DNA from: Flavobacteriales bacterium
GTDB lineage: Bacteria; Bacteroidota; Bacteroidia; Flavobacteriales_F; PHOS-HE28
Assembly (NCBI GenBank): GCA_016705545.1
Contig: JADIYA010000006.1
Location: 198,353 to 262,352, forward strand
Direction of reading: 5' to 3'
Length of the DNA: 64,000 nucleotides
A program made the position numbers and the translations under genes. Shown in pieces: positions 10,451-47,104 of the stretch. The notes under the pieces are model-generated. The model made no database searches. It was not told the DNA's origin and saw only the letters and a program-made list of their open reading frames with translations. The first letter of the stretch is position 1. Every line of letters begins with the position of its first letter.

Positions 10451-10470
10451 GTGAAACGCTCATTCCGTTC

Positions 10471-10494
10471 GAAGGCCGGGGATTCCCGGCCTTC
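10471..10494. terminator. Stem-loop terminator (bidirectional)
   Basis: GAAGGCCGGG-gatt-CCCGGCCTTC forms a perfect 10-bp stem. It lies between the TPR gene (ends 10450) and the last gene of the minus-strand SRPBCC operon (ends 10505). Confidence 0.6.
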
Positions 10495-10504
10495 GTCGTT
10501 CTCC

Positions 10505-11002
10505 TCAAATGAGAGCGCTTAGGCTATCCGCCAGCGCATCCATGCTATCGCACCAGCCGCCAATGTGACTATCGCGCGAGGCTGCGGTGGCCAAGCCCGT
10601 CTGGCGGAACTCGAGCCGAGTGCGTGGGCCTTCGTCATGCAGGTCAACGGTGACGAGCGTGCGGTGGCGCGCAGGGTTCACGTCCACAGGCGCTTTCTCC
10701 CATTGGTGCGTGAACGCCAGATGTGCGATGGGCCTTACCACCGTGTATGTGCCATAGCTAGGAATGTCCTCGCCATTGGGCGTGCGGAGCACCACGCGCC
10801 AGTTGCCGCCCTCGCGCAGGTCCGTTTCTGCGCTGATGGTGCTAAAGGCCGCACAGCCGAACCAGTGCACCAGCATGGCGGGCGTGACCCAAGCATCCCA
10901 AACCAAATGGCGCGGCGCATTGAACACACGGGTGATGAGGATCTCGTCCGGTGCGGGAGTGGAGACAGCATTGCGCGAACGCTGGGCGCTTGCTTGGTCC
11001 AT
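10505..11002 (-). CDS. SRPBCC (Aha1/AHSA1-like) domain protein
   Basis: Family signature ILITRVFNAPRHLVWDAWVTPAMLVHWFG...TYTVVRP, about 165 aa. Confidence 0.7.
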   Translation of the reverse strand: MDQASAQRSRNAVSTPAPDEILITRVFNAPRHLVWDAWVTPAMLVHWFGCAAFSTISAETDLREGGNWRVVLRTPNGEDIPSYGTYTVVRPIAHLAFTHQWEKAPVDVNPARHRTLVTVDLHDEGPRTRLEFRQTGLATAASRDSHIGGWCDSMDALADSLSALI

Positions 11003-11032
11003 GCCCGCAAATCTATCTGCTCGTGAAGAAGG

Positions 11033-11416
11033 TCAACCCTTGGTCATCGTCACAAGCCGCTTATGGTGCAATACGTACGACCACACCAGCACGCCGATGA
11101 AGAGGAACATCGGCGTCCATTGCGCCACAGGGTCGCCCACCGCAGCAAAAGAGACCATCGCAGCCACCAGATCGATGAGGAAACCGAAGTAGGCCCACTC
11201 TTTCACCCGAGCTGGCACCATGGGAAGCAGGATCACGACAGCGCCCAGCACCTTGGCATAGGAGATCAGCTTGATGAAGTAGAGCGGGTATCCCAGGTGG
11301 TCGTGCAGCATGGCCACGGATTGGGGCATTAGCGTAATTCCGCCGATGGAAGAGTAGATCATGAACGCGCTGAAGAGCGCGGTGACGATCCAGTAGGTGA
11401 GGTTGAGGCGTTTCAT
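11033..11416 (-). CDS. DoxX family membrane protein
   Basis: A 127-aa product with four predicted TM helices and a DoxX-like pattern (LISYAKVLGAVVILLP...FGFLIDLVAAMVSF). Its start overlaps the upstream gene by 4 nt. Confidence 0.6.
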   Translation of the reverse strand: MKRLNLTYWIVTALFSAFMIYSSIGGITLMPQSVAMLHDHLGYPLYFIKLISYAKVLGAVVILLPMVPARVKEWAYFGFLIDLVAAMVSFAAVGDPVAQWTPMFLFIGVLVWSYVLHHKRLVTMTKG

Positions 11417-11919
11417 GTGGCAGGTTGGGGGTTGTCTCGGGTCGAGCCCGGGATGACGACGGTTGAGCGTTGGGCCCTCAACAGCGCGTGAAGCCTATCA
11501 AGGTTCTCCTCGTTTGCGCGTTCGATGAAAACCCGGATCGGGGCTAGTTCCTCAGCCGTGTCGAAGCGCATGATCCAGTCGATGCGTGTGCCGCCGTCCA
11601 CCTCCGAGAAGGTCACCATCGCCTTGTAGAAATGCATCTCCTTCAGGTGGTCGAACTCCAGGTGGATGTGCGCCTCTATCCGTTTGAAGACGCACGTGTT
11701 GTTGAAGTCCATGCCATTCGGTCCATGCATGGTGAATTCCCACAGCCCCTCAGGCTTCAGCTCGAAGCGATGGAAGGTATTGGTGAAGCCATGCGGCCCC
11801 CACCAGATCACAAGCTGCCCGGGATCGGTCCATGCCGCGTATAACAGCTCGCGTGGTGCCGCGATCACGCGGCTAGTTCTCACTTCGCGAGCGGCCTCTT
11901 GATCCTCTGATCTTCTCAT
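11413..11919 (-). CDS. SRPBCC (Aha1-like) domain protein
   Basis: Internal start MRRSEDQEAAREVRTSRVIAAPRELLYAAWTDPGQLVIWWGPHGF. The longer ORF running to 12108 overlaps the upstream DUF1801 gene. Confidence 0.65.
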   Translation of the reverse strand: MRRSEDQEAAREVRTSRVIAAPRELLYAAWTDPGQLVIWWGPHGFTNTFHRFELKPEGLWEFTMHGPNGMDFNNTCVFKRIEAHIHLEFDHLKEMHFYKAMVTFSEVDGGTRIDWIMRFDTAEELAPIRVFIERANEENLDRLHALLRAQRSTVVIPGSTRDNPQPAT

Positions 11920-11936
11920 TTCCTGATTCTCTGATC

Positions 11937-12317
11937 CTACTTCACCGGCCAGCGAACTTCGATCTCCGCCACCTTCGATTTCACAATCGCCATCACCAGA
12001 GCTGCGGGCAACGGCTTGTCTGGCGTGAACTGAATGGCGCCTTTGCTGGTCTTGAATTCCTTGAGTTGTTCCTCGAAGCCGGTCGGCACCGATCCGTACA
12101 GCGCGCAATGGGCCTTGGCTGCTCCGATGTACAGCATGGGGTGCCCGTTGTACCTGAAGCCGGGCATTCCATAGCCGAAGTGTTCCTCGATGCCCGGCGC
12201 CGCAGCGAGGATCTGCTTGCGCAGCTTCATCAAGCCAGCGCGTTGGTCCTTCGGTAGTGCGGCCAGGTAGTCGCGCGCTGTTGGGTTCATCCCATAGGTG
12301 GGGTTGGGCGCGGTCAT
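11937..12317 (-). CDS. DUF1801 (YdhG-like) domain protein
   Basis: A 126-aa product with the pattern KLRKQILAAAPGIEEHFGYGMPGF...GAAKAHCALYG. Confidence 0.6.
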   Translation of the reverse strand: MTAPNPTYGMNPTARDYLAALPKDQRAGLMKLRKQILAAAPGIEEHFGYGMPGFRYNGHPMLYIGAAKAHCALYGSVPTGFEEQLKEFKTSKGAIQFTPDKPLPAALVMAIVKSKVAEIEVRWPVK

Positions 12318-12910
12318 TGGTGAAAAGCCTCTCCGCGTTCCATCATGGCGATGAACAATGCAAGGCGCTTGGCTCGCGTCTCATCCCTCTTAGCGGTCTG
12401 CAAGCGGTGTAGGAATGCATAGCGCTTGGTGCCAGTGAGCGTATCGAAGAACCCTTTGGCCTTTGTGTTCTTCTTCAGTGCGACCGCCAGATCGGGTGGT
12501 ACTTGGATGGTGCTGGCGGGCGCGTAGGCCTTGTCCCACTGGCCGTTGGACTTGGCGACCTTCACGGCAGCAAGCCCAGCCGGACGCATCAGCTTCGCCT
12601 TGATCAACTGCTGCACCTTCTTCCTGTTGATCTCGCTCCAGATGCTGCGCGGCGACCGTGGCGTGAAGCGCTGGAGGAAGGTCTTGTCGTCGTTGCTCCG
12701 TTTCACACCATCGATCCAGCCGTGGCACAGCGCAACTTCCACGGCTTCGGCATAGGTCACGGATGGTATCGCGCTGCCCTTCTTGGCGATGCTGATGTAG
12801 ATGCCGGGGGAAACGGTCCCGTATTTATCCAGCCAGGCATCCAAGGCTTGCGCGGTATCGAAGCCGACAACCTCGCGGTCTGTGGGAATCGCCGGTGCTT
12901 GCTTCTTCAT
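12314..12910 (-). CDS. YdeI/OmpD-associated family (DUF1905-like) protein
   Basis: Sequence ...ALCHGWIDGVKRSNDDKTFLQRFTPRSPRSIWSEINRKKV...KRYAFLHRLQTAKRDETRAKRLALFIAM. The internal start is MKKQAPAIP. Confidence 0.6.
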   Translation of the reverse strand: MKKQAPAIPTDREVVGFDTAQALDAWLDKYGTVSPGIYISIAKKGSAIPSVTYAEAVEVALCHGWIDGVKRSNDDKTFLQRFTPRSPRSIWSEINRKKVQQLIKAKLMRPAGLAAVKVAKSNGQWDKAYAPASTIQVPPDLAVALKKNTKAKGFFDTLTGTKRYAFLHRLQTAKRDETRAKRLALFIAMMERGEAFHQ

Positions 12911-12921
12911 GGGTGCCAAGC

Positions 12922-13383
12922 TCAACCGACCAGCCAATTCAATTCGGTGCGATAATCCTTAGGGTCCTTCACCTCGTCAGGGTTGTTCAGGTAGCGCTCG
13001 AAGAACCGGCCGTCCTCGGGCAGTTTCCGCTCGCGTACCCAGTCTTGCAGTTCGCGCCAGGCATCACCCATCCGCTCGTACGGACCTTGGTATACAGCAC
13101 GCACCACCTTCGCTCCGGGCAGGGCGCTATTCTTCACGCGTCCAGCTTCGTTCACGGACTTCGATACTGGGAAGCCGATCTCGAAGTCGAAGGTGTCCCC
13201 GGGGCGGCGATGGTGGTAGCTGAACATCGGTCCGGCCGGTTGCAGGCCTTGGTCGGTAAGCGCTTGGATGATCTCTTGGATCGCGGGGTCCATGTACTTG
13301 GGCATGTCGCGGCCGGAGATGACCAAGTGGATGGTGGCTGCTCGCTGTTCGGTTGTGGTGATGACTTCGGGTGGGGTGATCAT
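12922..13383 (-). CDS. GyrI-like small-molecule-binding domain protein
   Basis: A 153-aa product resembling the AraC effector-binding/GyrI-like fold (AVYQGPYERMGDAWRELQDWV...FFERYLNNP). Confidence 0.6.
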   Translation of the reverse strand: MITPPEVITTTEQRAATIHLVISGRDMPKYMDPAIQEIIQALTDQGLQPAGPMFSYHHRRPGDTFDFEIGFPVSKSVNEAGRVKNSALPGAKVVRAVYQGPYERMGDAWRELQDWVRERKLPEDGRFFERYLNNPDEVKDPKDYRTELNWLVG

Positions 13384-13424
13384 GGGGTGAAGATCAGACG
13401 ATCAGATGCTGAAAGGGCATCCGA

Positions 13425-13814
13425 TCAGGTGAGTTTGATCCAAGCGCTCAAGATGGCTTGCAACGCTTTTGCTTTTGCCTGGATATCCGCAGCATCCTTG
13501 AAGACGATCTGGCTGCGGTCGTTGCCGAGCCATTTGATCAAGTGCTCCGGATCGGGGATGCGGTCCTTCAAGACGATGCCTTTCGCTTTGGGGCCGGCGT
13601 GCAGGATGATCATCGGATCTTTCACGTGCCTAGGGCCGTTCAGCGTGGCGAACCAATCCATCGTTCGGAAGCTGGCCGTATTCCACTTCACACCTTCCTC
13701 GATCGACTTGTCGGCATTGAGGATGATGGTCCGTAGCTGGTCGAGTTCCTTTCGTAACGGATGCTTGTGCGCGTCAAGAAGGGTGGAAACAGCCGAATCG
13801 AAACGATGTGGCAT
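13425..13814 (-). CDS. DUF1801 domain protein
   Basis: A 129-aa product (EEGVKWNTASFRTMDWFATLNGP...) with a DUF1801-like pattern. Confidence 0.55.
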   Translation of the reverse strand: MPHRFDSAVSTLLDAHKHPLRKELDQLRTIILNADKSIEEGVKWNTASFRTMDWFATLNGPRHVKDPMIILHAGPKAKGIVLKDRIPDPEHLIKWLGNDRSQIVFKDAADIQAKAKALQAILSAWIKLT

Positions 13815-13820
13815 GGAGGG

Positions 13821-14300
13821 TCAGCTTCGGGAGGCCAGGTATTGATCCAATCGTGCGTAGCCCACCTCCATTTCATTGCCCATCTGCACGGCGATCACAC
13901 CTTCACGCGCAGCGGTGGACTCGTACTCAACGGTCAGTGTCATCAAGGTCCTTCCGCCATCCTCAGTGAGCACCATCTTTCCCACCGCTTCGCCCGGGTA
14001 CCACGATTGATCGAATTTCTCAGTGGTCACGAGGCGCTCGGGCCTGACGATCTCTTTGTAAAAACCGCTCATGCCCATCTCAATTCCGTCGGTATTCCGC
14101 CACACCCATCGGTAAGCCCCACCCACCCGAAGGTCGATCTCGCAGACCACGAGCGTCCAACCGGTCGCGCCATGGAACCAGTTCAACATCATCTCGGAAC
14201 TGGTCATCGCATCGAATACCAAGGCGCGTGGAGCCTTGAAGGTGCGCGTGATACGGATCGCGCGATCGCCGTGGGGAACGATTTCGACTTCAGTGCTCAT
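13821..14300 (-). CDS. SRPBCC (Aha1-like) domain protein
   Basis: Family signature AIRITRTFKAPRALVFDAMTSSEMMLNWFHG...RVGGAYRWVWRNTDG. Confidence 0.7.
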   Translation of the reverse strand: MSTEVEIVPHGDRAIRITRTFKAPRALVFDAMTSSEMMLNWFHGATGWTLVVCEIDLRVGGAYRWVWRNTDGIEMGMSGFYKEIVRPERLVTTEKFDQSWYPGEAVGKMVLTEDGGRTLMTLTVEYESTAAREGVIAVQMGNEMEVGYARLDQYLASRS

Positions 14301-14333
14301 GAAGGTTGCAGTCTAGGTAAGTCTGTATGAGGT

Positions 14334-14750
14334 TCAAGCCTGCCCCTCCGCATGCGCCTTGAACCGGTCCAGGATAGCCTGCCAGCCCCCACGTTGCATT
14401 TCAACGGGATTCTCGGATTCAGCATCGAAGGATTCCGTGATGCGCGTGCCGCCATCCTTCATCTCGAAGAGGATCTCGCAGCTGCGGCCATCGGCCATGG
14501 TGTAGGCGATGCGCTTGTTCAGTTGAACATCGTCATACACTCCGGCGAAATCGAAGCTGAAGCTGCCATCGCGCGCGGCCATGGTGCTGCTGAACGAACC
14601 GCCAATGCGCAGATCGTTGGTCGCCTTGGGGCAATGCCAGTCATCGCTGGCGGCGTTCCATTGCATGATGTGGGCCGGCTCTGTCCAGATCCTCCAGACG
14701 TGGGTCACAGGCTTGTTGACGTGGGTGGTGATGGTGATGCGGGTGCTCAT
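14334..14750 (-). CDS. SRPBCC (Aha1-like) domain protein
   Basis: Family signature ITITTHVNKPVTHVWRIWTEPAHIMQWNAASDDW...RIGGSF. Confidence 0.7.
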   Translation of the reverse strand: MSTRITITTHVNKPVTHVWRIWTEPAHIMQWNAASDDWHCPKATNDLRIGGSFSSTMAARDGSFSFDFAGVYDDVQLNKRIAYTMADGRSCEILFEMKDGGTRITESFDAESENPVEMQRGGWQAILDRFKAHAEGQA

Positions 14751-14790
14751 GTTGCATGGAGTTGTGGCGCCAGATTCCGCGCCCGTACGA

Positions 14791-15672
14791 TCAATCCTCG
14801 ATGGCTTCGATGCCTTGCTCCTTCAGGCGTTGCAGGTGTTCGTTCATGGCCTGAAGCAGTTCCGGTGCATGGCCTTGCCAGTCGGCCACTTCGCCCACCA
14901 CGCGCAAGGCGCTCTTGGTGCGGTATGACCTGGTCGGATTGCCGGGGAACTTCTTGTCGGTCAGGTTGGGGTCGTTCTCGAAATGCCCGGTGGGCTCCAC
15001 GATGTAGATCCGGCCGCGGCCTTCGCCCTGGGCCAGTTCGGCACCCCAAGTGGCGGCATCCAAGGTGGCTGTCAGGTAAACGTACTTGGCCGGCTTCTGC
15101 TGGCCGTAGTTGGAACTGAACCCCGGTTCGATCAGATCGCCCACTTTCACCTGAGCCTTGGTGCCATGGTAGTACGTGGTGCTCGACAGGAGCTCGTCCA
15201 ACTGCTCCAGTCCCATGGTGAATCCTTCTTTGAAGCCCATCTTGAGGATCTGCTCCAACGCTTCCGGAGAAGTGAAGTCCAGGTGCATGCGAACCGTCGT
15301 GGTGCCCCCGCTCTCGCTGAAATGGTTCTTCCAATGCGTGGCCGGCTTGAAGCCGTTGGCCGAACCATCCTCGTCACAGAACGCATCGTGCCCATCGAAG
15401 TAGGTCTTGGGCGTGATGGTCCCGTATTCGAAGAAGCACCAATGCCGGTCGCCCTGCGGACCCTCCATGCAGTAGAGCCACTTGCCACCTATGCGGAAGT
15501 CCAGCGACTTGATGATGCATTGATAAGGCCGTGGAGCCCACCACTGGCAGAGGATTGCGGGATCCGTCCATGCGGCCCACACCAGGTCCAACGGGGAGTT
15601 AAAGGTGCGTTCCACAGTGATGGTGCGGTCATCCTTGGCAATGATGAAGTTGAACATCGCGGGTGTCGGCAT
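14791..15672 (-). CDS. arr: Fusion of an N-terminal SRPBCC/Aha1-like domain to a C-terminal NAD+--rifampin ADP-ribosyltransferase (Arr) domain
   Basis: The N-terminal ~150 aa read ITVERTFNSPLDLVWAAWTDPAILCQWWAP...FRIGGKW (SRPBCC). The C-terminal ~135 aa read YYHGTKA...GDLIEPGF...WGAELA...GRGRIYIVEPTGHFENDPNLTDKKFPGNPTRSYRTKSALRVVGEVADWQGH...GIEAIED. These match the recalled Arr-ms motifs almost position by position: YHGTKA, WGAELA, YIVEPTG.FE.DPNLT.K.FPGNPT.SYRT, DWEGH, IED. Confidence 0.75.
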   Translation of the reverse strand: MPTPAMFNFIIAKDDRTITVERTFNSPLDLVWAAWTDPAILCQWWAPRPYQCIIKSLDFRIGGKWLYCMEGPQGDRHWCFFEYGTITPKTYFDGHDAFCDEDGSANGFKPATHWKNHFSESGGTTTVRMHLDFTSPEALEQILKMGFKEGFTMGLEQLDELLSSTTYYHGTKAQVKVGDLIEPGFSSNYGQQKPAKYVYLTATLDAATWGAELAQGEGRGRIYIVEPTGHFENDPNLTDKKFPGNPTRSYRTKSALRVVGEVADWQGHAPELLQAMNEHLQRLKEQGIEAIED

Positions 15673-15675
15673 GGC

Positions 15676-16158
15676 TCAATGGGTTTGCAGGGTCGTCACG
15701 TACTCAGCCAAGTGCGCCAGCGTCTGCTTCCCGCCTTCGATAGCACCGACGTTCTCCACCACGAAGTCACGCGCTTCTTTGGTCGGGAACACGGTCCGGA
15801 GCGTCACCAGCGTTCCATCGTCCTTCTGGTCGAAACGCAGCTCTCCTTCGAACTGCTTGGGATTAGCGGGATCGCCGTGATCGTAGGCGATGCGGCTCAT
15901 GGGCACGATTTCCCGGTAGGTGATCAGGTTGGGCCACACCTTGCCGTCCGGACCGGTCATGGTGTATTCCCACTCGCCACCCACGCGGAAGTCCATACGG
16001 ATGGTACGGTTGGTGAAGCCGTCCGGGCCCCACCAGCGATCGATGTGCGCGGCTTCCGTGCAGGCCTTCCACACCAGCGCTTGCAGTGCGCGCATGTGGC
16101 GGGTGATGGTGATCTCGCGATCGCTTGTTCCGGTTTGCATCTTGAACTCAATTGTCAA
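15676..16158 (-). CDS. SRPBCC (Aha1-like) domain protein
   Basis: Family signature ITITRHMRALQALVWKACTEAAHIDRWWGPDGF...RVGGEWEYTMTGPDG. Confidence 0.7.
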   Translation of the reverse strand: MTIEFKMQTGTSDREITITRHMRALQALVWKACTEAAHIDRWWGPDGFTNRTIRMDFRVGGEWEYTMTGPDGKVWPNLITYREIVPMSRIAYDHGDPANPKQFEGELRFDQKDDGTLVTLRTVFPTKEARDFVVENVGAIEGGKQTLAHLAEYVTTLQTH

Positions 16159-16555
16159 GCAGGTCCGTCAGAGCATAGAGCCGCATCTCCCAGCGATCCG
16201 CATAGCCATGGGTGATGAGCGATCCAATCGTCAGCGGCTCCATCGGGGTCATGCGGAGGTTGATATGGGTGAGGTGCTCGTCCTCCTCAAAATTGGCCTC
16301 GATGCGCACGGCATTCAAGCCATCGCTTTCTTCGGCTGTGAGGAAGGACGGGCCAATGGTGGTGATGCGGAACACTATTCCTTCAACCGGGGGTAGCCAA
16401 CGAACGCGCAATGAAGCCTCCTTCCAGAAAGGCGTTAGCCGCTCGAGGGATTCCCGCATCGAACGGTTGAAAATCAGGCAGCCCAAGTCGAGCTTGTGCA
16501 AGGGCTGGTCTTGTTGTAGGCCCACCGGCAAGTCGAGGAGATCCGTGTCGCGCAT
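16148..16555 (-). CDS. Hypothetical protein, possibly a divergent SRPBCC. Translationally coupled to the ArsR gene.
   Basis: Internal start MRDTDLLDL... The ATG overlaps the arsR stop in a TGATG arrangement. No confident family assignment. Confidence 0.4.
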   Translation of the reverse strand: MRDTDLLDLPVGLQQDQPLHKLDLGCLIFNRSMRESLERLTPFWKEASLRVRWLPPVEGIVFRITTIGPSFLTAEESDGLNAVRIEANFEEDEHLTHINLRMTPMEPLTIGSLITHGYADRWEMRLYALTDLLDN

Positions 16556-16887
16556 CACTTCTGGGGTTTCTTGCCTTGAAGTTCCTGGAGATAGGCATCG
16601 AGCCGATCGAAGCGCTCTTCCCACATCGTCCGGTACTGCTCGATCCAGGCATCGGCTTCTTTCAGTGGTTCAGCCTTCAACTCGCATGGGCGCCATTGCG
16701 CTTCACGTCCACGCTTGATCAACTGGGCACGCTCGAGCACTTTGAGGTGCTTGCTAACGGCAGGTAAGCTCATGTCGAAGGGTGCCGCCAACTCATTCAC
16801 GCTAGCGGGACCATTCGATAGCTGCGCGAGGATTGCCCTGCGCGTAGGGTCAGCAAGAGCCGAGAAGGTGAGCGAGAGGCGATCCAT
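16555..16887 (-). CDS. ArsR/SmtB family HTH transcriptional regulator (first gene of the SRPBCC operon)
   Basis: Signature LADPTRRAILAQLSNGPASVNELAAPFDMSLPAVSKHLKVLERAQLI, a winged-HTH ArsR pattern. Confidence 0.75.
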   Translation of the reverse strand: MDRLSLTFSALADPTRRAILAQLSNGPASVNELAAPFDMSLPAVSKHLKVLERAQLIKRGREAQWRPCELKAEPLKEADAWIEQYRTMWEERFDRLDAYLQELQGKKPQK

Positions 16888-16910
16888 GGAAGTGGCGCGG
16901 GGGCAAACGT

Positions 16911-16930
16911 ATTAAACCGAATGGTTAAAT
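16911..16930. promoter_or_regulatory. Candidate ArsR operator: imperfect palindrome ATTAAACC-gaat-GGTTAAAT, 24-43 nt upstream of the arsR start
   Basis: The inverted repeat matches 7 of 8 positions and is centred in the presumed promoter of the minus-strand operon. Confidence 0.35.
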
Positions 16931-16998
16931 ACAAATCCTGAACCAACGTGCAATCTTGGGGGCTACTCGACGATTACTGATCCTGGGAAACGGCGCCA

Positions 16999-19884
16999 CT
17001 AAGGCTCCGCCTCGATCAGCACCTCATCCGCGAAGATCCAAGTGGTCCCGCCCTTGCCGGGGTGCCAATCGGGGCACACGCCAGCATTCTTTGCCGTGAT
17101 GGCGATGTAACGTGCTTTCCTTCCACTAAGCTCGCGCCATAGCTCGCGCGTGATGCCTCCGTCAGCTTTGCGGCCAACATCGTGGCTGATCGTGGCACTG
17201 CTCCATTGCCGCTGATTCGTGCTCACGCTGAAGGTGACTTCGCTGGGCAGCCAGATCCAGCTCTTCTGGTCCTGCAGCACGCTCAGGCCCACGCGCTTCA
17301 GCTTCTGCACACGGCCCAGGTCGATTAACAATACCACGTCCTGGTCGCGGTAGCCCTGCCATTCACCGGTCCGGAAGTCCTTGCCGCCGCGCACGCCATC
17401 AATCAATGCGCTCGGTCCGCCCGCAGTGTACTCGTTGGCGTACTTGCTCTCCAGCGTGATGGTGCGGCCGCCTTCATACTTCACGTAAGTCGCGGTGACC
17501 TGCACCGAGGCGATCCTGTTCTTCCGTCCTTGCGCTCCTTGCACGAATGCCGTGGCACCGATCGAGCAGCTGCGGGTGATCCAGAACGGCGCTTGATAGG
17601 GGTGTGGCTCGGTTCCATCGATGCTGTATTCGATGCGCGCGCGATCATCGCTGCTGCCGATGGTGATGAGCAGGCTGTCGGTGAATGCCTGCCGCGCGGC
17701 CTGGATGACGGGCGCTGGTGTCCATGCGTCATCGAACTCGGGAATGAAACGTCCCGGTGATCCCCCCGGGCGCGGGCCTAGGGTGAAGCGCAACTCGCCG
17801 CCCTTCATCAGTTCGTCATGCGGGATGGTCCGATACGTCTCGGGCTGCTGGCCATTCCATGTGAAGCTCTCCACATGCGAGCGGTCGTTGCCCATCACCT
17901 CGGTGCGCATGCGCCATTTGCTGCCATTGCCCAGGTCAATGGTGGCTTCATCGAAGAGCGGCCAGCCGATGGTGTAGCTGGGATCACCGGGACAGATGGG
18001 GTAGAAGCCGAGCGCGCTCATCACCAGCCAAGCGCTCATCTGGCCGCAGTCCTCGTTGCCGATGAGGCCATCGGGCGCGTCCGTGTAGAAGTTCTGCATG
18101 ATGCGCCTCGCGAACACGTCCGTGCTCAACGGTCGGTCGCTCAGGTTGTAGAGGTAGGTGAAGTTGTGGCTGGGCTCGTTGCCATGGGCGTACTGGCCGA
18201 TGAGTCCGGTGATGTCGCTCTGGTCGCGTCCCGTGGTGTTCTCCTTCGCGGTGAAGAGCGCATCGAGCCTTCCCGCCAGACCGCTCGGACCACCGGTGAG
18301 GGACATGAACCGATCCATGTCATGCGGGACGAAGAAGCCGTATTGCCAAGCATTCGCCTCAGTGAAGTTGAAATTCACCTCATAGGGGTCGAAGGGTTGC
18401 ATGAAGCCGCCGTTTCGCCGCGCACGGAAGAAGCGCGTCTCGGGGTCGAATAGGTTCTGCCAATTTCGGCTGCGCTCGTAAAATCGTCGCGCCACATCAC
18501 CGTTGCCGATCATCTCTGCGAAGCGCGCGATGCACCAATCGTCGTAGGCGTATTCCAGCGTGCGGCTCACGCTCTCCGGTTCGTCCTCGCTGCTGATGTA
18601 GCCGCGCTCGCGGTAGGCCTTCAATCCGAAATGATCCGCATCGGCACTGGCCACCATCGCTTCCAAGGCCAGCTTAGTATCGAAGTCGCGGATACCCTTG
18701 GCATAGGCATCGGCGATCACGCTCACGCTGTGGTAGCCGATCATGCAATCGGTCTCGTTGCCCCAGAGCTCCCAAACGGGCAGTCGTCCGCTTTGCTTGT
18801 AGTGCAGCAGGAAAGTTTGGATCCAGTCGCTGGTCATCTCGGGTTCCAGCACGGTCATCAGCGGGTGCAGTGCGCGGAAGGTGTCCCACAGGCTGAAGAC
18901 GCTGTACACGTTGTGGTCGGCCTTGTGGACCTCACCATCCATGCCGCGGTACTGGCCATCCACATCGTTGAAGATGCAGGGCGCCACGTAGCTGTGGTAG
19001 AGCGCGGTGTAGAAGGCGCGCTGCTGCTCCTTGGTGCCGCCCTTTACTTGGACCTTGTTCAGCTTGGCGTTCCACGCATCCTCGGCTTGCTTGCGCACGA
19101 GATCGAAATCCCAATGCGGCACTTCGGCCTCGAGGTTCCTACGCGCGCCTTCGATGCTCACGGCGGAGATGCCGACCTTAACAATGAGGGGTTCAGCACT
19201 ATTCCGAATGCCCACGACAGCGACCGTGCTATCTGATGCCTCGCGCACGATCTGTACCTCCCGGCTGAAACGGGCGACGAAGTAGAGCTGCTGATCGCGC
19301 GTCCAGGATGAGCTGCGTCGCTTGCCTGCCAACTCGCTCTGCGCCGTTTGAATGATGGACGCACCAAGCAGCTTGTCGCGATGGCGCAGATCAACCACCA
19401 TGAACTGCTCTGGTCCGGCCGGGATCCGGTAGCGATGAACGCCCACACGCGGCGATGACGTCAGTTCAACGCGAGTGCCCGTTCGGTCCAATTGAACGGA
19501 GTAATAGCCAGCGCTGGCCTGCTCGGTTTCTTTCATGAATGAGGATCGATAAGCCGCCGGGCTCGTCGAGTACTTGTCCGTCATGGGCATCAACAGCATA
19601 TCGCACAGATCCGCCACGCCGGTGCCGCTCAGGTGCGTGTGACTGAAGCCGTAGATGAGGCTATCCGAATAATGGTAGCCTCCGCAGCCGTCCCAGTCCA
19701 TGTAGCCATCGGGGCGGGTATCGGGGCTGAGCTGCACCAGGCCATTGGGCACGCAGGCGCCGGGGTAGGTGTGGCCGTGGCCGCCGGTGCCGATGAAGGG
19801 GTTGACGAGGTCGCGGGCGGGGTTCACCTGAGCATGGCCAACGCCAGGCATCAGAATGCAGATCGCCGTTAACAATGGCAGCAT
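16999..19884 (-). CDS. GH92 family alpha-mannosidase with C-terminal carbohydrate-binding/F5-8 type C-like extension. Secreted.
   Basis: Signal peptide MLPLLTAICILMPGVGHAQ, followed by NPFIGTGGHGHTYPGACVPNGLVQLSPDT (GH92 N-terminal signature). The long ORF starts earlier at 20214; the biologically plausible start is 19884 or 19932. Confidence 0.75.
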   Translation of the reverse strand: MLPLLTAICILMPGVGHAQVNPARDLVNPFIGTGGHGHTYPGACVPNGLVQLSPDTRPDGYMDWDGCGGYHYSDSLIYGFSHTHLSGTGVADLCDMLLMPMTDKYSTSPAAYRSSFMKETEQASAGYYSVQLDRTGTRVELTSSPRVGVHRYRIPAGPEQFMVVDLRHRDKLLGASIIQTAQSELAGKRRSSSWTRDQQLYFVARFSREVQIVREASDSTVAVVGIRNSAEPLIVKVGISAVSIEGARRNLEAEVPHWDFDLVRKQAEDAWNAKLNKVQVKGGTKEQQRAFYTALYHSYVAPCIFNDVDGQYRGMDGEVHKADHNVYSVFSLWDTFRALHPLMTVLEPEMTSDWIQTFLLHYKQSGRLPVWELWGNETDCMIGYHSVSVIADAYAKGIRDFDTKLALEAMVASADADHFGLKAYRERGYISSEDEPESVSRTLEYAYDDWCIARFAEMIGNGDVARRFYERSRNWQNLFDPETRFFRARRNGGFMQPFDPYEVNFNFTEANAWQYGFFVPHDMDRFMSLTGGPSGLAGRLDALFTAKENTTGRDQSDITGLIGQYAHGNEPSHNFTYLYNLSDRPLSTDVFARRIMQNFYTDAPDGLIGNEDCGQMSAWLVMSALGFYPICPGDPSYTIGWPLFDEATIDLGNGSKWRMRTEVMGNDRSHVESFTWNGQQPETYRTIPHDELMKGGELRFTLGPRPGGSPGRFIPEFDDAWTPAPVIQAARQAFTDSLLITIGSSDDRARIEYSIDGTEPHPYQAPFWITRSCSIGATAFVQGAQGRKNRIASVQVTATYVKYEGGRTITLESKYANEYTAGGPSALIDGVRGGKDFRTGEWQGYRDQDVVLLIDLGRVQKLKRVGLSVLQDQKSWIWLPSEVTFSVSTNQRQWSSATISHDVGRKADGGITRELWRELSGRKARYIAITAKNAGVCPDWHPGKGGTTWIFADEVLIEAEP

Positions 19885-45415: not shown

Positions 45416-45982
45416 TCACTCGCCAGCGGCTTCCGCGCGCTTTATCTCCTGGTCCAGGATCTCGTCCATCACCTTCAGCTCCTGCTCGCTCACTTTGCGG
45501 TCAGTGCGCGCCTGCTTCTTCATGAAGCGGAACATGGCAGCCTTGCGCACTTCGTAGGCCACATACACGGTGTATTCCTTGGTCTCTTCGTTGAAATAGG
45601 TCTCCTCGCCAACCTTACGCAGGTCGGCCAGTTCGGTGTTCATCACCTCGCGGATCAGGCTCTGGAACTTATCGGCCACATCGGCGGCCCGGGCGTTCTC
45701 CGTTTGGCCGAGGTATTGGTCGGTTACCGCGCGCACATTGGTGCCCACCTGGCTGGCCACTTGGTTCTTGGCATCGATATCAGCCTTGCCCTTAGCGATA
45801 TTGGTTTTCACGCTGACGCCCTGGCCAACGCCACGGAACCAGGCGCCATTGCTCTCGTACTTGCTCCCGCTGAAGGGCGTTTTCACCTTGGTTCCCTGCG
45901 GACTGGCGCCGCCTCCTTTGCATGCCGTGAAGGAAATCGCAGCGAAAAAGAGCAGGGCAGTGGCAGCTTGAATGGTTCTCAT
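45416..45982 (-). CDS. LPP20-like lipoprotein (hypothetical)
   Basis: Internal start MRTIQAATALLFFAAISFTACKGG (lipobox). Downstream resembles the LPP20 family (KADIDAKNQVASQVGTNVRAVT). Confidence 0.45.
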   Translation of the reverse strand: MRTIQAATALLFFAAISFTACKGGGASPQGTKVKTPFSGSKYESNGAWFRGVGQGVSVKTNIAKGKADIDAKNQVASQVGTNVRAVTDQYLGQTENARAADVADKFQSLIREVMNTELADLRKVGEETYFNEETKEYTVYVAYEVRKAAMFRFMKKQARTDRKVSEQELKVMDEILDQEIKRAEAAGE

Positions 45983-46087
45983 GACTGGTGCGGTGACGGA
46001 TGGTTGGCGCCAAGGTTGGAAAAATCCGTGCCGAGTGATGGTGGTTGGATTCCGGAAGGCATCTTTCGGATCCAAACCCAAGATTCC

Positions 46088-47104
46088 ATGAAAGCACTCA
46101 AGATCATCCTCATCCTCGTGCTGGGCATCGGTGCCATGATAGCCGCACTAGGCTTCCTCGGTGACGATTCATACCGCGTTGAGCGCTCAGTGACGATCAC
46201 CGCGCCTGTCGATGATGTATGGCTGGCCGTTTCCTCACTCGGTGCCATGGATAAATGGAGCCCTTGGAATGAACTCGACCCGAATATGAAGAAGAGCATG
46301 GAGGGCACCGATGGCCAGGTAGGCGCGGTGTCCCGCTGGGAAGGCAATGAAGATGTAGGCAAGGGCGAGCAGCGAATCGATTCCATCGCACGCAATTCCT
46401 TGGTGCGGACACGATTGAAGTTCATCGAGCCTTGGCAGAGCGAGAGCGATGCATTGATCGAACTCTCGACCGATGGCGATGGCACCAAGGTCACGTGGGC
46501 GATGGAGGGCGAACACACCTTCGGAAGCCGGCTCATGGGCCGATTCATGGACATGGATGCCATGTTGGGCAAGGACTTCGAGAAGGGCTTGGGCAAGCTG
46601 AAGGCCCAGGTGGAGGAGGCGTTCGCTGCCAAGCCGAAATTCGAGATCAAATCCTTGGAATGGCCGGCAACCTTGTTCATCGGCAAGCGCGGCATTGTAG
46701 CGTGGGCTGATATGAAGGCAGCCTTTGAAACCGGCTTTGGATCAGGCATGGAAGCACTGGCTAAGGCCAAGGCGGAGATGTCCGGTTATCCCAGTGGCGT
46801 GTACTTCGAGTGGAACGAAGCCGATCAGACCGCAGATATGATTGCTGGCATTCCCGTGTCAATGGATGCCAAGGACAAGTTAAAGGGCATCGAACTCTAC
46901 GAATCGCCTGCCAGCAAGGCGTTGGCGATTGATTATTACGGCGGCTACAACGGCATGATGGCCCCGCATCTGGCCATGGACGAGTACATCAAAGCCAACG
47001 GGCTCACGCACCATACCAATGTAATCGAGGAGTACGTGACGGACCCCATGACAGAACCGGACAGCACCAAATGGCTCACACGGATCATCTACTTGGTCAA
47101 GTGA
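46088..47104 (+). CDS. Membrane-anchored SRPBCC (polyketide-cyclase-like) domain fused to a GyrI-like effector-binding domain
   Basis: N-terminal TM helix MKALKIILILVLGIGAMIAAL. SRPBCC-like core (VERSVTITAPVDDVWLAVSSLGAMDKWSPW). C-terminal GyrI-like region (EWPATLFIGKRGIV...YFEWNEAD...IDYYGGYNGMMAPHLAMDEYIKANGL). Confidence 0.55.
   Translation: MKALKIILILVLGIGAMIAALGFLGDDSYRVERSVTITAPVDDVWLAVSSLGAMDKWSPWNELDPNMKKSMEGTDGQVGAVSRWEGNEDVGKGEQRIDSIARNSLVRTRLKFIEPWQSESDALIELSTDGDGTKVTWAMEGEHTFGSRLMGRFMDMDAMLGKDFEKGLGKLKAQVEEAFAAKPKFEIKSLEWPATLFIGKRGIVAWADMKAAFETGFGSGMEALAKAKAEMSGYPSGVYFEWNEADQTADMIAGIPVSMDAKDKLKGIELYESPASKALAIDYYGGYNGMMAPHLAMDEYIKANGLTHHTNVIEEYVTDPMTEPDSTKWLTRIIYLVK

Follow-up and report, generated by a model that had tools for sequence, protein, structure and literature searches.

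An expanded ArsR-COG3832 array with a fused SRPBCC-Arr protein in Flavobacteriales, possibly directed against toxic natural products

A stretch of 64,000 nt from a Flavobacteriales bacterium (assembly GCA_016705545.1, contig JADIYA010000006.1, positions 198,353-262,352; hereafter the window) contains a cluster of 13 open reading frames (ORFs) that all lie on the minus strand (10505-16887), between a conserved promoter/operator and a hairpin. The cluster is headed by arsR, which is followed by twelve genes designated here g2 to g13 in gene order (Table 1). Six of them encode SRPBCC proteins of the AHSA1 type, one of which (g4) is covalently fused to an Arr (rifampin ADP-ribosyltransferase) domain. 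Judged by the gene content and relatives of the cluster, the known but uncharacterised ArsR-COG3832 module has here undergone a lineage-specific expansion. On balance, we lean towards a composite reading in which the cluster is an autoregulated chromosomal operon that enlarges this module and acts against toxic natural products.

The g4 fusion protein and the relatives of the array

An earlier note on this DNA, made without database searches, had proposed that one SRPBCC protein is fused to Arr, and this was borne out by profile searches. The g4 product (293 aa) matches AHSA1 over residues 26-162 and Arr-ms over residues 167-265 in Pfam, with positions 1-99 of the 99 in the Arr-ms model covered, and its Arr domain scores 218.7 bits with the NCBIfam rifampin_ARR equivalog NF033144 (cutoff 130; model positions 2-131 of 131). 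This domain could be aligned without gaps to residues 11-142 of the Arr-ms structure (PDB 2hw2, E = 1.8e-47), and the N-terminal domain matches PDB 2lf2 (E = 6e-44). Key features of Arr-ms include the HGT and S[NH][YF] motifs for NAD+, Y49, the catalytic D84 and rifampin-binding site 1 (PMC8492726). The active-site residues are intact in g4, which keeps H169-G170-T171, S187-N188-Y189, Y199, D234 and, as site 1, LTDKKFPGN at 237-245. All of these are invariant or nearly so in 24 aligned fusion homologues, which are conserved over their whole length, and Morgado et al. list these residues as essential. Rifampin-binding site 2 is partly conserved (MRQGLEEL at 126-133 of Arr-ms versus MNEHLQRL in g4). 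In an AF2 model of g4 (pLDDT 84, pTM 0.78; pLDDT above 90 for the N-terminal domain), the C-terminal helix of the SRPBCC domain (147-163) enters, only 3 residues further on, the Arr strand that bears HGT, and the coupling of the two domains in the model is therefore tight. In GC content and in GC content at third codon positions (GC3), the Arr segment matches its neighbors, which gives no sign of recent transfer. The fusion is not mentioned in a survey of Arr proteins (PMC8492726), and literature searches combining rifampin ADP-ribosyltransferase with SRPBCC, ArsR with SRPBCC, and AHSA1 with ArsR and operon returned nothing that describes either the array or the fusion.

Synteny of the whole array extends to about 25 loci of related Flavobacteriales metagenome-assembled genomes (MAGs), where the array comprises 10 to 15 genes, and the presence of an orthologue at the matching position in related genomes for every array gene places the ORF set above chance. 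A 779-kb contig of MAG GCA_963851565.1 matches the window at about 99% identity, and on it the same 13 genes are flanked by housekeeping genes (thrS-infC-rpmI-rplT, MFS, ROK and GH92 on one side; TPR, gyrA and clpB on the other), and the closest other genomes come from uncultured Flavobacteriales of activated sludge and similar habitats. The six AHSA1 paralogues share only 22-38% identity among themselves, whereas each has its own orthologue in related MAGs at 50-85% identity, implying that the duplications are old and that all copies have persisted. Beyond this clade, about 50 of 58 Bacteroidota loci have arsR immediately upstream of a g4-type SRPBCC gene, with 3-nt gaps or overlaps, and a DoxX gene is often found near these distant arsR-AHSA1 pairs.

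The pair itself was described by Makarova, Wolf and Koonin (2009, PMC2701414) as an ArsR protein lacking metal motifs together with a COG3832 protein, expanded in some genomes. It was found in a screen for type II toxin-antitoxin systems, and these authors considered antibiotic resistance its most plausible role and a toxin-antitoxin function possible. The resistance idea put forward in the earlier note is therefore not new. ArsR-COG3832 is among the commonest conserved two-gene modules of bacteria, with expansions in Rhodococcus, Solibacter and Mesorhizobium and with Rv2034/Rv2035 as its representative in Mycobacterium tuberculosis, where Rv2035 is still listed without an assigned function in a 2026 review. 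A COG3832 protein of Stenotrophomonas maltophilia showed no toxicity in Escherichia coli or in its own host.

The distribution of Arr differs from that of the array. Arr forms a fusion with g4 in the window as well as in loci L001-L006 and L081, is encoded separately right after g4 in L010 (13-nt gap) and L020 (4-nt overlap), and is lacking in most related clusters (e.g., L008, L013, L017 and L019). Elsewhere, it is the g3 paralogue that is fused to Arr (locus L086; proteins of 286-289 aa whose N-terminal domain is 79-82% identical to window g3). A triple fusion of g3, g4 and Arr (444 aa) was also detected, as were proteins with two AHSA1 domains and Arr (438-456 aa), one of which has planctomycete-type neighbors and no arsR. 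Fusion of AHSA1 with Arr is thus recurrent, with at least three arrangements of the SRPBCC part and a second context of planctomycete-like character. Unfused neighbors occur in Pedobacter: P. ginsengiterrae has arsR-AHSA1-arr with 135 nt before arr, and Pedobacter sp. Leaf194 has arsR-AHSA1-VOC-GNAT-arr-DUF4256. On quick neighbor-joining trees of ArsR and of the g4 N-terminal domain, computed without support values, loci with and without Arr are intermixed, and a single gain of Arr was not retained as an explanation, one gain with many losses being inseparable on such trees from spread by recombination. The fused g4 architecture is absent from the 72,556 plasmids of PLSDB. Comparison of these loci shows that the array is older and that Arr was added later as an optional component; since most related clusters lack it, Arr is not what defines the array functionally.

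Two side observations concern Arr architectures. The protein with planctomycete-like PSD/PSCyt neighbors and no arsR (L085 of GCA_963852235.1, 5001-6323; 440 aa, two AHSA1 domains plus Arr) directly follows genes for an alpha/beta hydrolase and for DNA_binding_1 (methylated-DNA methyltransferase type). In addition, proteins of about 240 aa from cyanobacteria and Chloroflexi that databases label as plain Arr (P0033, P0028 and P0091) are tandem Arr-Arr proteins, in which a shortened N-terminal core (FYHGTKA...YIVEP...LRVTGEV) precedes a complete Arr.

The ArsR regulator and its control region

The regulator matches HTH_20 (58.2 bits) and HTH_5 (49.8 bits) in Pfam as well as NF033788 (85.9 bits, cutoff 55), and its closest solved structure is 3f6o, an uncharacterised Rhodococcus protein (E = 2e-26). 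Comparison of 69 orthologues revealed neither the alpha-3 CXC nor the alpha-5 metal site. The single cysteine (Cys68) is replaced by tyrosine in 48 of the 69, the sole conserved histidine sits in the SKHL motif of the recognition helix, and all matches to the metal-sensor equivalog models of NCBIfam fall far below their cutoffs. Metal sensing could thus be ruled out, given the lack of a conserved Cys/His site and the sub-cutoff equivalog matches, and so could thiol or electrophile sensing through Cys68, given the tyrosine in most orthologues. By these features, ArsR is assigned to a non-metal, COG3832-associated subfamily and resembles Rv2034, an autorepressor whose footprinted palindrome has a 4-bp spacer and on which seven metal ions had no effect (Gao et al. 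2012, PMC3338718). Links of Rv2034 to lipid metabolism and to dosR/phoP control have also been reported (PMC3338718).

A sigma-70 promoter scan gave no match, as expected for Bacteroidota, and a manual search for the -33/-7 motifs of this phylum took its place. The sequence upstream of arsR, TTTG-TATTTAACCATTCGGTTTAATAC-GTTTG, holds a -33 element, a -7 element and, between them, the core of a candidate operator, TTAACC-N4-GGTT(T)AA, at 16913-16928. The imperfect palindrome that the earlier note had placed ahead of arsR is accordingly real, although extending over 16909-16932. Its core (TTAACC-N4-GGTTWA) occurs once in the 64 kb against 0.03 occurrences expected by chance, and 20 related loci have kept the block that runs from the -33 box through the palindrome to the -7 box, whereas its surroundings and its spacing from the ATG vary. 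Comparative sequence hence lends good support to the predicted autorepression by ArsR via promoter occlusion. We could detect no extra copies of the operator, nor paralogues of the array, elsewhere in the window.

The AACC-N4-GGTT core is common to the window site and to the duplicated GCAACC-N4-GGTTGC sites of distant Bacteroidota arsR promoters, with two palindromes being found in Chitinophaga, Algoriphagus, Pedobacter, Dyadobacter and others. In these distant pairs (L023-L080), the region about 100 nt upstream of arsR contains, in order, TTTG, GCAACC-N4-GGTTGC, TAtaTTTG and a second GCAACC-N4-GGTTGC, so that the two palindromes flank the -7 box, one between -33 and -7 and the other just after -7. 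In the window clade, the second operator is lost and the outer bases of the half-sites are changed relative to distant Bacteroidota.

TAnnTTTG has only two matches in the 64-kb window, both inside the cluster, compared with 7.9 expected from shuffles, a rarity that may reflect either degenerate promoters in this high-GC Flavobacteriales lineage or counter-selection outside true promoters. One match is the -7 element of arsR and the other precedes g13 (Table 1). Because g13 orthologues retain a preceding TAnnTT[TC]G-like motif despite insertions that have moved g12 more than 1 kb away in some loci, g13 may also have its own promoter. Beyond g13, the strong terminator that had been said to close the array is a real hairpin with an 11-bp stem (-25.4 kcal/mol, z = -3.9; none of 200 shuffles was as stable), though one that has no T-run, which is why a consensus terminator scan missed it. 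Lying between convergent genes, it could terminate transcription in both directions. Inside the array, terminator-like sites are no more frequent than expected by chance (4 versus 5.4). The view that the cluster forms one transcription unit is consequently supported by the shared strand, the short gaps, the conserved promoter/operator, the lack of an internal terminator signal above chance and the end hairpin, but qualified by the conserved -7-like box before g13. A scan of both strands of the whole window with Rfam gave no family at gathering score and hence detected no riboswitch or leader.

Possible function of the array and rival explanations

Gene content in sister clusters provides a further line of evidence. 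Genes for DNA_alkylation (AlkC/AlkD-like) proteins are inserted in L006, L010 and L012, one for an AlkZ-like DNA glycosylase in L006, and glyoxalase/bleomycin-resistance-fold genes, including Ble-like_N, in L006, L012 and L013; other inserts encode Cupin_2, DUF1428 and a membrane-anchored Polyketide_cyc2 protein, and related clusters also have a GNAT gene. Among AlkD/YtkR2-type glycosylases, AlkZ-type glycosylases and Ble-type VOC proteins are some that confer self-resistance to DNA-damaging natural products. By taking up inserts at variable positions, the array behaves like a hotspot for genes of the genotoxin-resistance type, including at least two Ble-like VOC genes (insert coordinates: L006, 6057-6785, 7261-8151 and 10699-11760; L010, 6608-7351; L012, 13762-14580; L013, 14538-14948). 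Also in L013, a histidine kinase gene (RsbRD_N + HisKA + HATPase_c; 16706-17884) is inserted between DoxX and the g13 orthologue.

Among the core genes, g8 has as its closest solved structures CTR107 and its derivatives (5kax and 9rtm, E about 2e-17). A crystal structure with rhodamine 6G exists for CTR107, a multidrug-binding protein whose ligands include rhodamines and further drugs. GyrI-like domains give albicidin resistance through drug binding (PMC10414762), and a GyrI-like subfamily hydrolyses yatakemycin and CC-1065 (PMC5684135). For the SRPBCC fold, the protein CalC neutralises calicheamicin and thereby gives enediyne resistance. The company kept by the array, as guilt by association at the family level, consistently points to defence against toxic natural products. 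With regard to the earlier proposal that the cluster binds or inactivates hydrophobic toxins, the recurrent AHSA1-Arr fusions, the unfused arsR-AHSA1-arr of Pedobacter, the glycosylase, VOC, GNAT and cupin accessories and the likeness of g8 to CTR107 speak in its favor, but Arr is dispensable. That the SRPBCC proteins act as a "sponge" or in "delivery" is conjecture.

A second gene that had been cited as pointing the same way, at 46088-47104 on the plus strand, does encode the predicted protein with a transmembrane segment, Polyketide_cyc2 and a GyrI-like domain. However, it has no copy of the operator nearby and is therefore not visibly co-regulated with the cluster, and its architecture matches that of a Xanthomonas citri "polyketide cyclase" required for induction of type III secretion rather than for binding drugs. 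It adds little to the interpretation of the cluster. The adjoining gene (45416-45985, minus strand) encodes a lipoprotein-like product without a Pfam match.

In the mechanism that we propose, a dimer of the non-metal, Rv2034-type ArsR would bind the palindrome, as comparative sequence suggests, and would occlude RNA polymerase by its position between the -33 TTTG and the -7 TAnnTTTG. An organic, non-metal signal would relieve this repression, acting either directly on ArsR or through an SRPBCC protein, and the resulting transcript would cover 12 genes, with g13 possibly being expressed from its own promoter as well. The products, as shown at the family level, comprise six AHSA1 SRPBCC proteins, one probably degenerate SRPBCC-like protein, two DUF1801 proteins, the CTR107-like GyrI-like protein, the YdeI/OmdA protein and the DoxX membrane protein. 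The small cytoplasmic proteins among them would bind, and some would chemically disarm, toxic hydrophobic natural products. As g4 keeps every catalytic and NAD+-binding residue of Arr, it should ADP-ribosylate rifamycins, transferring ADP-ribose from NAD+ to the C23 hydroxyl, and this predicted chemistry is the only well-grounded step of the mechanism. The SRPBCC domain of g4, joined by a linker of at most 3 residues, most likely captures or orients an ansamycin or a related hydrophobic compound for Arr.

A bolder version, which we regard as doubtful, would make the AHSA1 proteins antibiotic-capture subunits, each paralogue with its own class of hydrophobic toxin that it sequesters or hands to Arr, GNAT, VOC or glycosylase partners, while one paralogue may also signal to the metal-blind ArsR that ligand is bound. 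Such an array would be a modular cytoplasmic system of multiple specificities that detects, sequesters and disarms toxins.

Several points weigh against assigning the array to antibiotics. Cavities predicted for bacterial proteins of the AHSA1 type can be very small; that of Rv2035 is given as 139 cubic angstroms (PMC13525633), which is hard to reconcile with a ligand of the size of rifamycin. Arr is patchy and missing from most related clusters, so the core array works without it and regulatory hitch-hiking could be involved. The member families are all broad families of "general stress", which keeps guilt by association at the family level. The operon status is deduced from spacing and motifs, and the SRPBCC identity of g2 (see below) is held tentatively.

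The main rival explanation is a minority possibility that we nevertheless take seriously. According to it, the core array is unrelated to antibiotics and serves endogenous lipids or quinones, general stress or a regulatory function of SRPBCC proteins; arr landed in a stress-inducible operon and hitch-hiked on its regulation, and the fusion is a neutral loss of a stop codon. The absence of Arr from most related clusters and its patchy placement on the trees fit such a history, the adjacent unfused stages (13-nt gap and 4-nt overlap) make a one-step fusion easy, and the small predicted cavities, the "regulatory" role suggested in the literature for some bacterial START proteins and the connection of the ArsR relative Rv2034 with lipid metabolism and dosR/phoP control are in line with it. 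However, Arr has been joined to at least three different arrangements of SRPBCC, and also in a second context at the level of phyla, which would not be expected of a neutral accident. The fusion homologues show conservation over their full length, and the further accessory genes also come from toxin-resistance families.

It is improbable, in our view, that the Arr domain modifies another hydrophobic small molecule chosen by the fused SRPBCC domain, with the array targeting a different class of toxin. The altered site 2 may hint at this, Morgado et al. discuss possible roles of Arr beyond rifamycins, and the accessory genes of sister clusters point to DNA-damaging toxins rather than to inhibitors of RNA polymerase. 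On the other hand, g4 Arr exceeds the NCBIfam equivalog cutoff by a wide margin and retains rifampin-binding site 1, and Arr enzymes of verified function are reported to occur throughout the Arr phylogeny even though the rifampin-binding sites diverge.

A selfish module of the toxin-antitoxin kind, with ArsR as antitoxin and tandemly multiplied COG3832 proteins as toxins, is suggested by the first detection of the pair in a type II screen and by its lineage-specific expansions. Yet Makarova et al. themselves preferred antibiotic resistance, the S. maltophilia protein was non-toxic in both hosts, the 13 genes stand in stable chromosomal synteny among housekeeping genes as ancient, individually conserved paralogues, and the fused g4 architecture is on no plasmid in PLSDB. 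Architecture, synteny and published non-toxicity all disfavor this explanation, which we consider very improbable. Least probable of all, to a point where it hardly merits consideration, is an operon for metal or arsenic resistance or a biosynthetic cluster with polyketide cyclases, for which family names and sub-threshold matches to metal-sensor models are the only grounds, whereas ArsR has neither metal site and a single non-conserved cysteine, its relative Rv2034 does not respond to metals, and neither the cluster nor its flanks contain ars, czc, cop, PKS, KS or ACP genes.

Gene layout and comparison with known systems

The thirteen minus-strand genes were recovered in the claimed order from the ORF list. 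With starts backed by orthologue N-termini and by the gene calls of MAG GCA_963851565.1, the 12 junction gaps are, in gene order, -1, +7, +3, +40, +33, +6, +41, +11, -4, +17, -4 and +30 nt. The TGATG coupling of arsR and g2 (1-nt overlap) was thereby confirmed. Overlaps of 4 nt, said to be present at most starts, are found at only 2 of the 12 junctions, but all gaps are of 41 nt or less. Pfam families could be assigned to 12 of the 13 genes, g2 being the exception. Six putative SRPBCC ORFs do fall in AHSA1 (PF08327) above the gathering score of 22.1 bits (g3, 86.7; g4, 63.1; g5, 75.7; g6, 83.3; g11, 68.6; g13, 86.1), and they are not contiguous (g3-g6, g11 and g13), which corrects the description of seven SRPBCC paralogues in a row. 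For g3, we used the ATG at 16140, as in the gene call of the near-identical MAG, rather than the alternative TTG at 16158. An alternative TTG at 12937 also exists for g9, whose MAG gene call shows DUF8412 plus OmdA and for which a solved homologue was looked for and none found. Orthologues of g5 are 76-83% identical. Two antisense ORFs on the plus strand (12895-13845, 316 aa; 14983-16215, 410 aa) have a GC3 below that of the minus-strand genes, are of a kind typical for high-GC coding DNA and were treated as non-coding.

The g2 product, earlier counted as SRPBCC, has no Pfam or NCBIfam match. A word-indexed search returned only 3 close relatives. When 1.84 billion representative proteins were searched exhaustively with HMMER, these grew to one small family with 9 representatives of about 135-143 aa, linked to AHSA1 only by profile-profile comparison. 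In related loci, g2 is located between arsR and g3 at 37-43% identity, and this conserved position at such identity marks it as a real but fast-evolving gene. It is probably a degenerate SRPBCC.

Table 1. Features of the cluster and its control elements, in the order of transcription (window coordinates)
Feature	Position	Strand	Description	Support
-33 element	16932..16935	-	TTTG, Bacteroidota-type	20 nt upstream of -7 box; kept in most related loci
ArsR operator candidate	16909..16932	-	GTATTTAACC-ATTC-GGTTTAATAC	10-4-10 palindrome, arms match 9/10
-7 element	16904..16911	-	TACGTTTG (TAnnTTTG)	Conserved in related loci
arsR	16555..16887	-	ArsR/SmtB-fold repressor, 110 aa	HTH_20 E 8e-16; HTH_5 E 3e-13
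g2	16148..16555	-	Orphan limited to the clade, 135 aa; probably degenerate/shortened SRPBCC	
g3	15676..16140	-	AHSA1-type SRPBCC, 154 aa	AHSA1 E 2e-24
g4, N-terminal domain	15181..15672	-	AHSA1-type SRPBCC, residues 1-164	AHSA1 E 3.8e-17
g4, C-terminal domain	14791..15180	-	Arr, residues 165-293 and stop codon	Arr-ms E 1.2e-49
g5	14334..14750	-	AHSA1-type SRPBCC, 138 aa	AHSA1 E 4.9e-21
g6	13821..14300	-	AHSA1-type SRPBCC, 159 aa	AHSA1 E 2.2e-23
g7	13425..13814	-	DUF1801, 129 aa	DUF1801 E 3.3e-10
g8	12922..13383	-	GyrI-like small-molecule-binding family, CTR107-like, 153 aa	GyrI-like E 4.2e-17
g9	12314..12910	-	YdeI/OmdA family, 198 aa from ATG at 12910	OmdA E 1.5e-21
g10	11937..12317	-	DUF1801, 126 aa; 4-nt overlap with g9	DUF1801 E 1.1e-16
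g11	11413..11919	-	AHSA1-type SRPBCC, 168 aa	AHSA1 E 7.8e-19; Polyketide_cyc2 E 7.8e-7
g12	11033..11416	-	DoxX_2 membrane protein, 127 aa; 4-nt overlap with g11	DoxX_2 E 8.4e-16
-7-like box of g13	11008..11015	-	TAGATTTG, 6 nt upstream of g13 ATG	Second of two TAnnTTTG matches
g13	10505..11002	-	AHSA1-type SRPBCC, 165 aa	AHSA1 E 2.9e-24
Terminal hairpin	10470..10495	-	11-bp G+C-rich stem, AAUC loop	Between convergent g13 and TPR genes

What is new here is the expanded, Arr-fused form of the array, the module and the resistance idea having been known already. Recurrent fusion or adjacency of SRPBCC and Arr may serve as a Rosetta stone that names a candidate class of ligands, rifamycins or other ansamycins, and the Arr fusion makes the role of ArsR-COG3832, a module described in 2009, approachable by experiment, the toxin-antitoxin idea having failed its one direct test. 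The glycosylases, Ble-like VOC proteins and GNAT of sister clusters suggest that the array is a hotspot for determinants of resistance to natural products, and the habitats of these bacteria, wastewater and soil, make it relevant to the environmental resistome. If the antibiotic-capture reading were true, a function would be available for a gene pair with hundreds of copies in soil bacteria, including Rv2034/Rv2035. If the reading as a defence were wrong, the cluster would be an ordinary stress operon that happens to hold a resistance gene.

Among known systems, the array is most similar to ArsR-COG3832 itself, with which it shares an arsR without metal motifs, located upstream of and co-directional with AHSA1 genes, a chromosomal setting and proneness to expansion; the g4-type SRPBCC of the window is the partner paralogue of arsR throughout Bacteroidota. 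However, the known module is a two-gene unit, whereas the window has 13 genes, including six or seven for SRPBCC, together with DUF1801, GyrI-like, YdeI and DoxX genes. The gene right after arsR is the orphan g2, and one SRPBCC is fused to Arr. The Rv2034-Rv2035-Rv2036 operon of M. tuberculosis is likewise headed by an ArsR-like regulator and includes an SRPBCC gene. The candidate operator of the window shares the 4-bp spacer of the footprinted Rv2034 site and overlaps the promoter, although binding is here predicted from sequence. The operators differ in sequence (CCGTAAGT-N4-ACTTACGG for Rv2034 versus TTAACC-N4-GGTTAA), as do the phylum, the type of promoter, the number of genes (3 versus 13) and the presence of Arr, which is lacking at the mycobacterial locus.

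Characterised Arr enzymes (Arr-ms, PDB 2hw2; Arr-2, PDB 9iba) share with g4 the HGT and S-N-Y motifs, the equivalents of Y49 and D84, and rifampin-binding site 1. However, they are stand-alone proteins of 140-150 aa, often encoded on integrons or plasmids or, in Actinobacteria, under the rifamycin-associated element, whereas g4 carries Arr at the C-terminus of a 293-aa fusion within an ArsR-headed chromosomal operon. Comparable with g8, which has a single GyrI-like domain, are CTR107/SAV2435, STM3175/YgiV (albicidin) and the cyclopropanoid hydrolases. These relatives, to which g8 is likened by sequence, protect through stoichiometric binding or hydrolysis of toxic natural products, and CTR107 is not known as part of an ArsR array such as the one in which g8 lies. 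Finally, CalC, CalU16 and CalU19 of enediyne producers have the SRPBCC fold in common with the AHSA1 proteins of the array and provide a precedent for the neutralisation of a toxic natural product by an SRPBCC protein.

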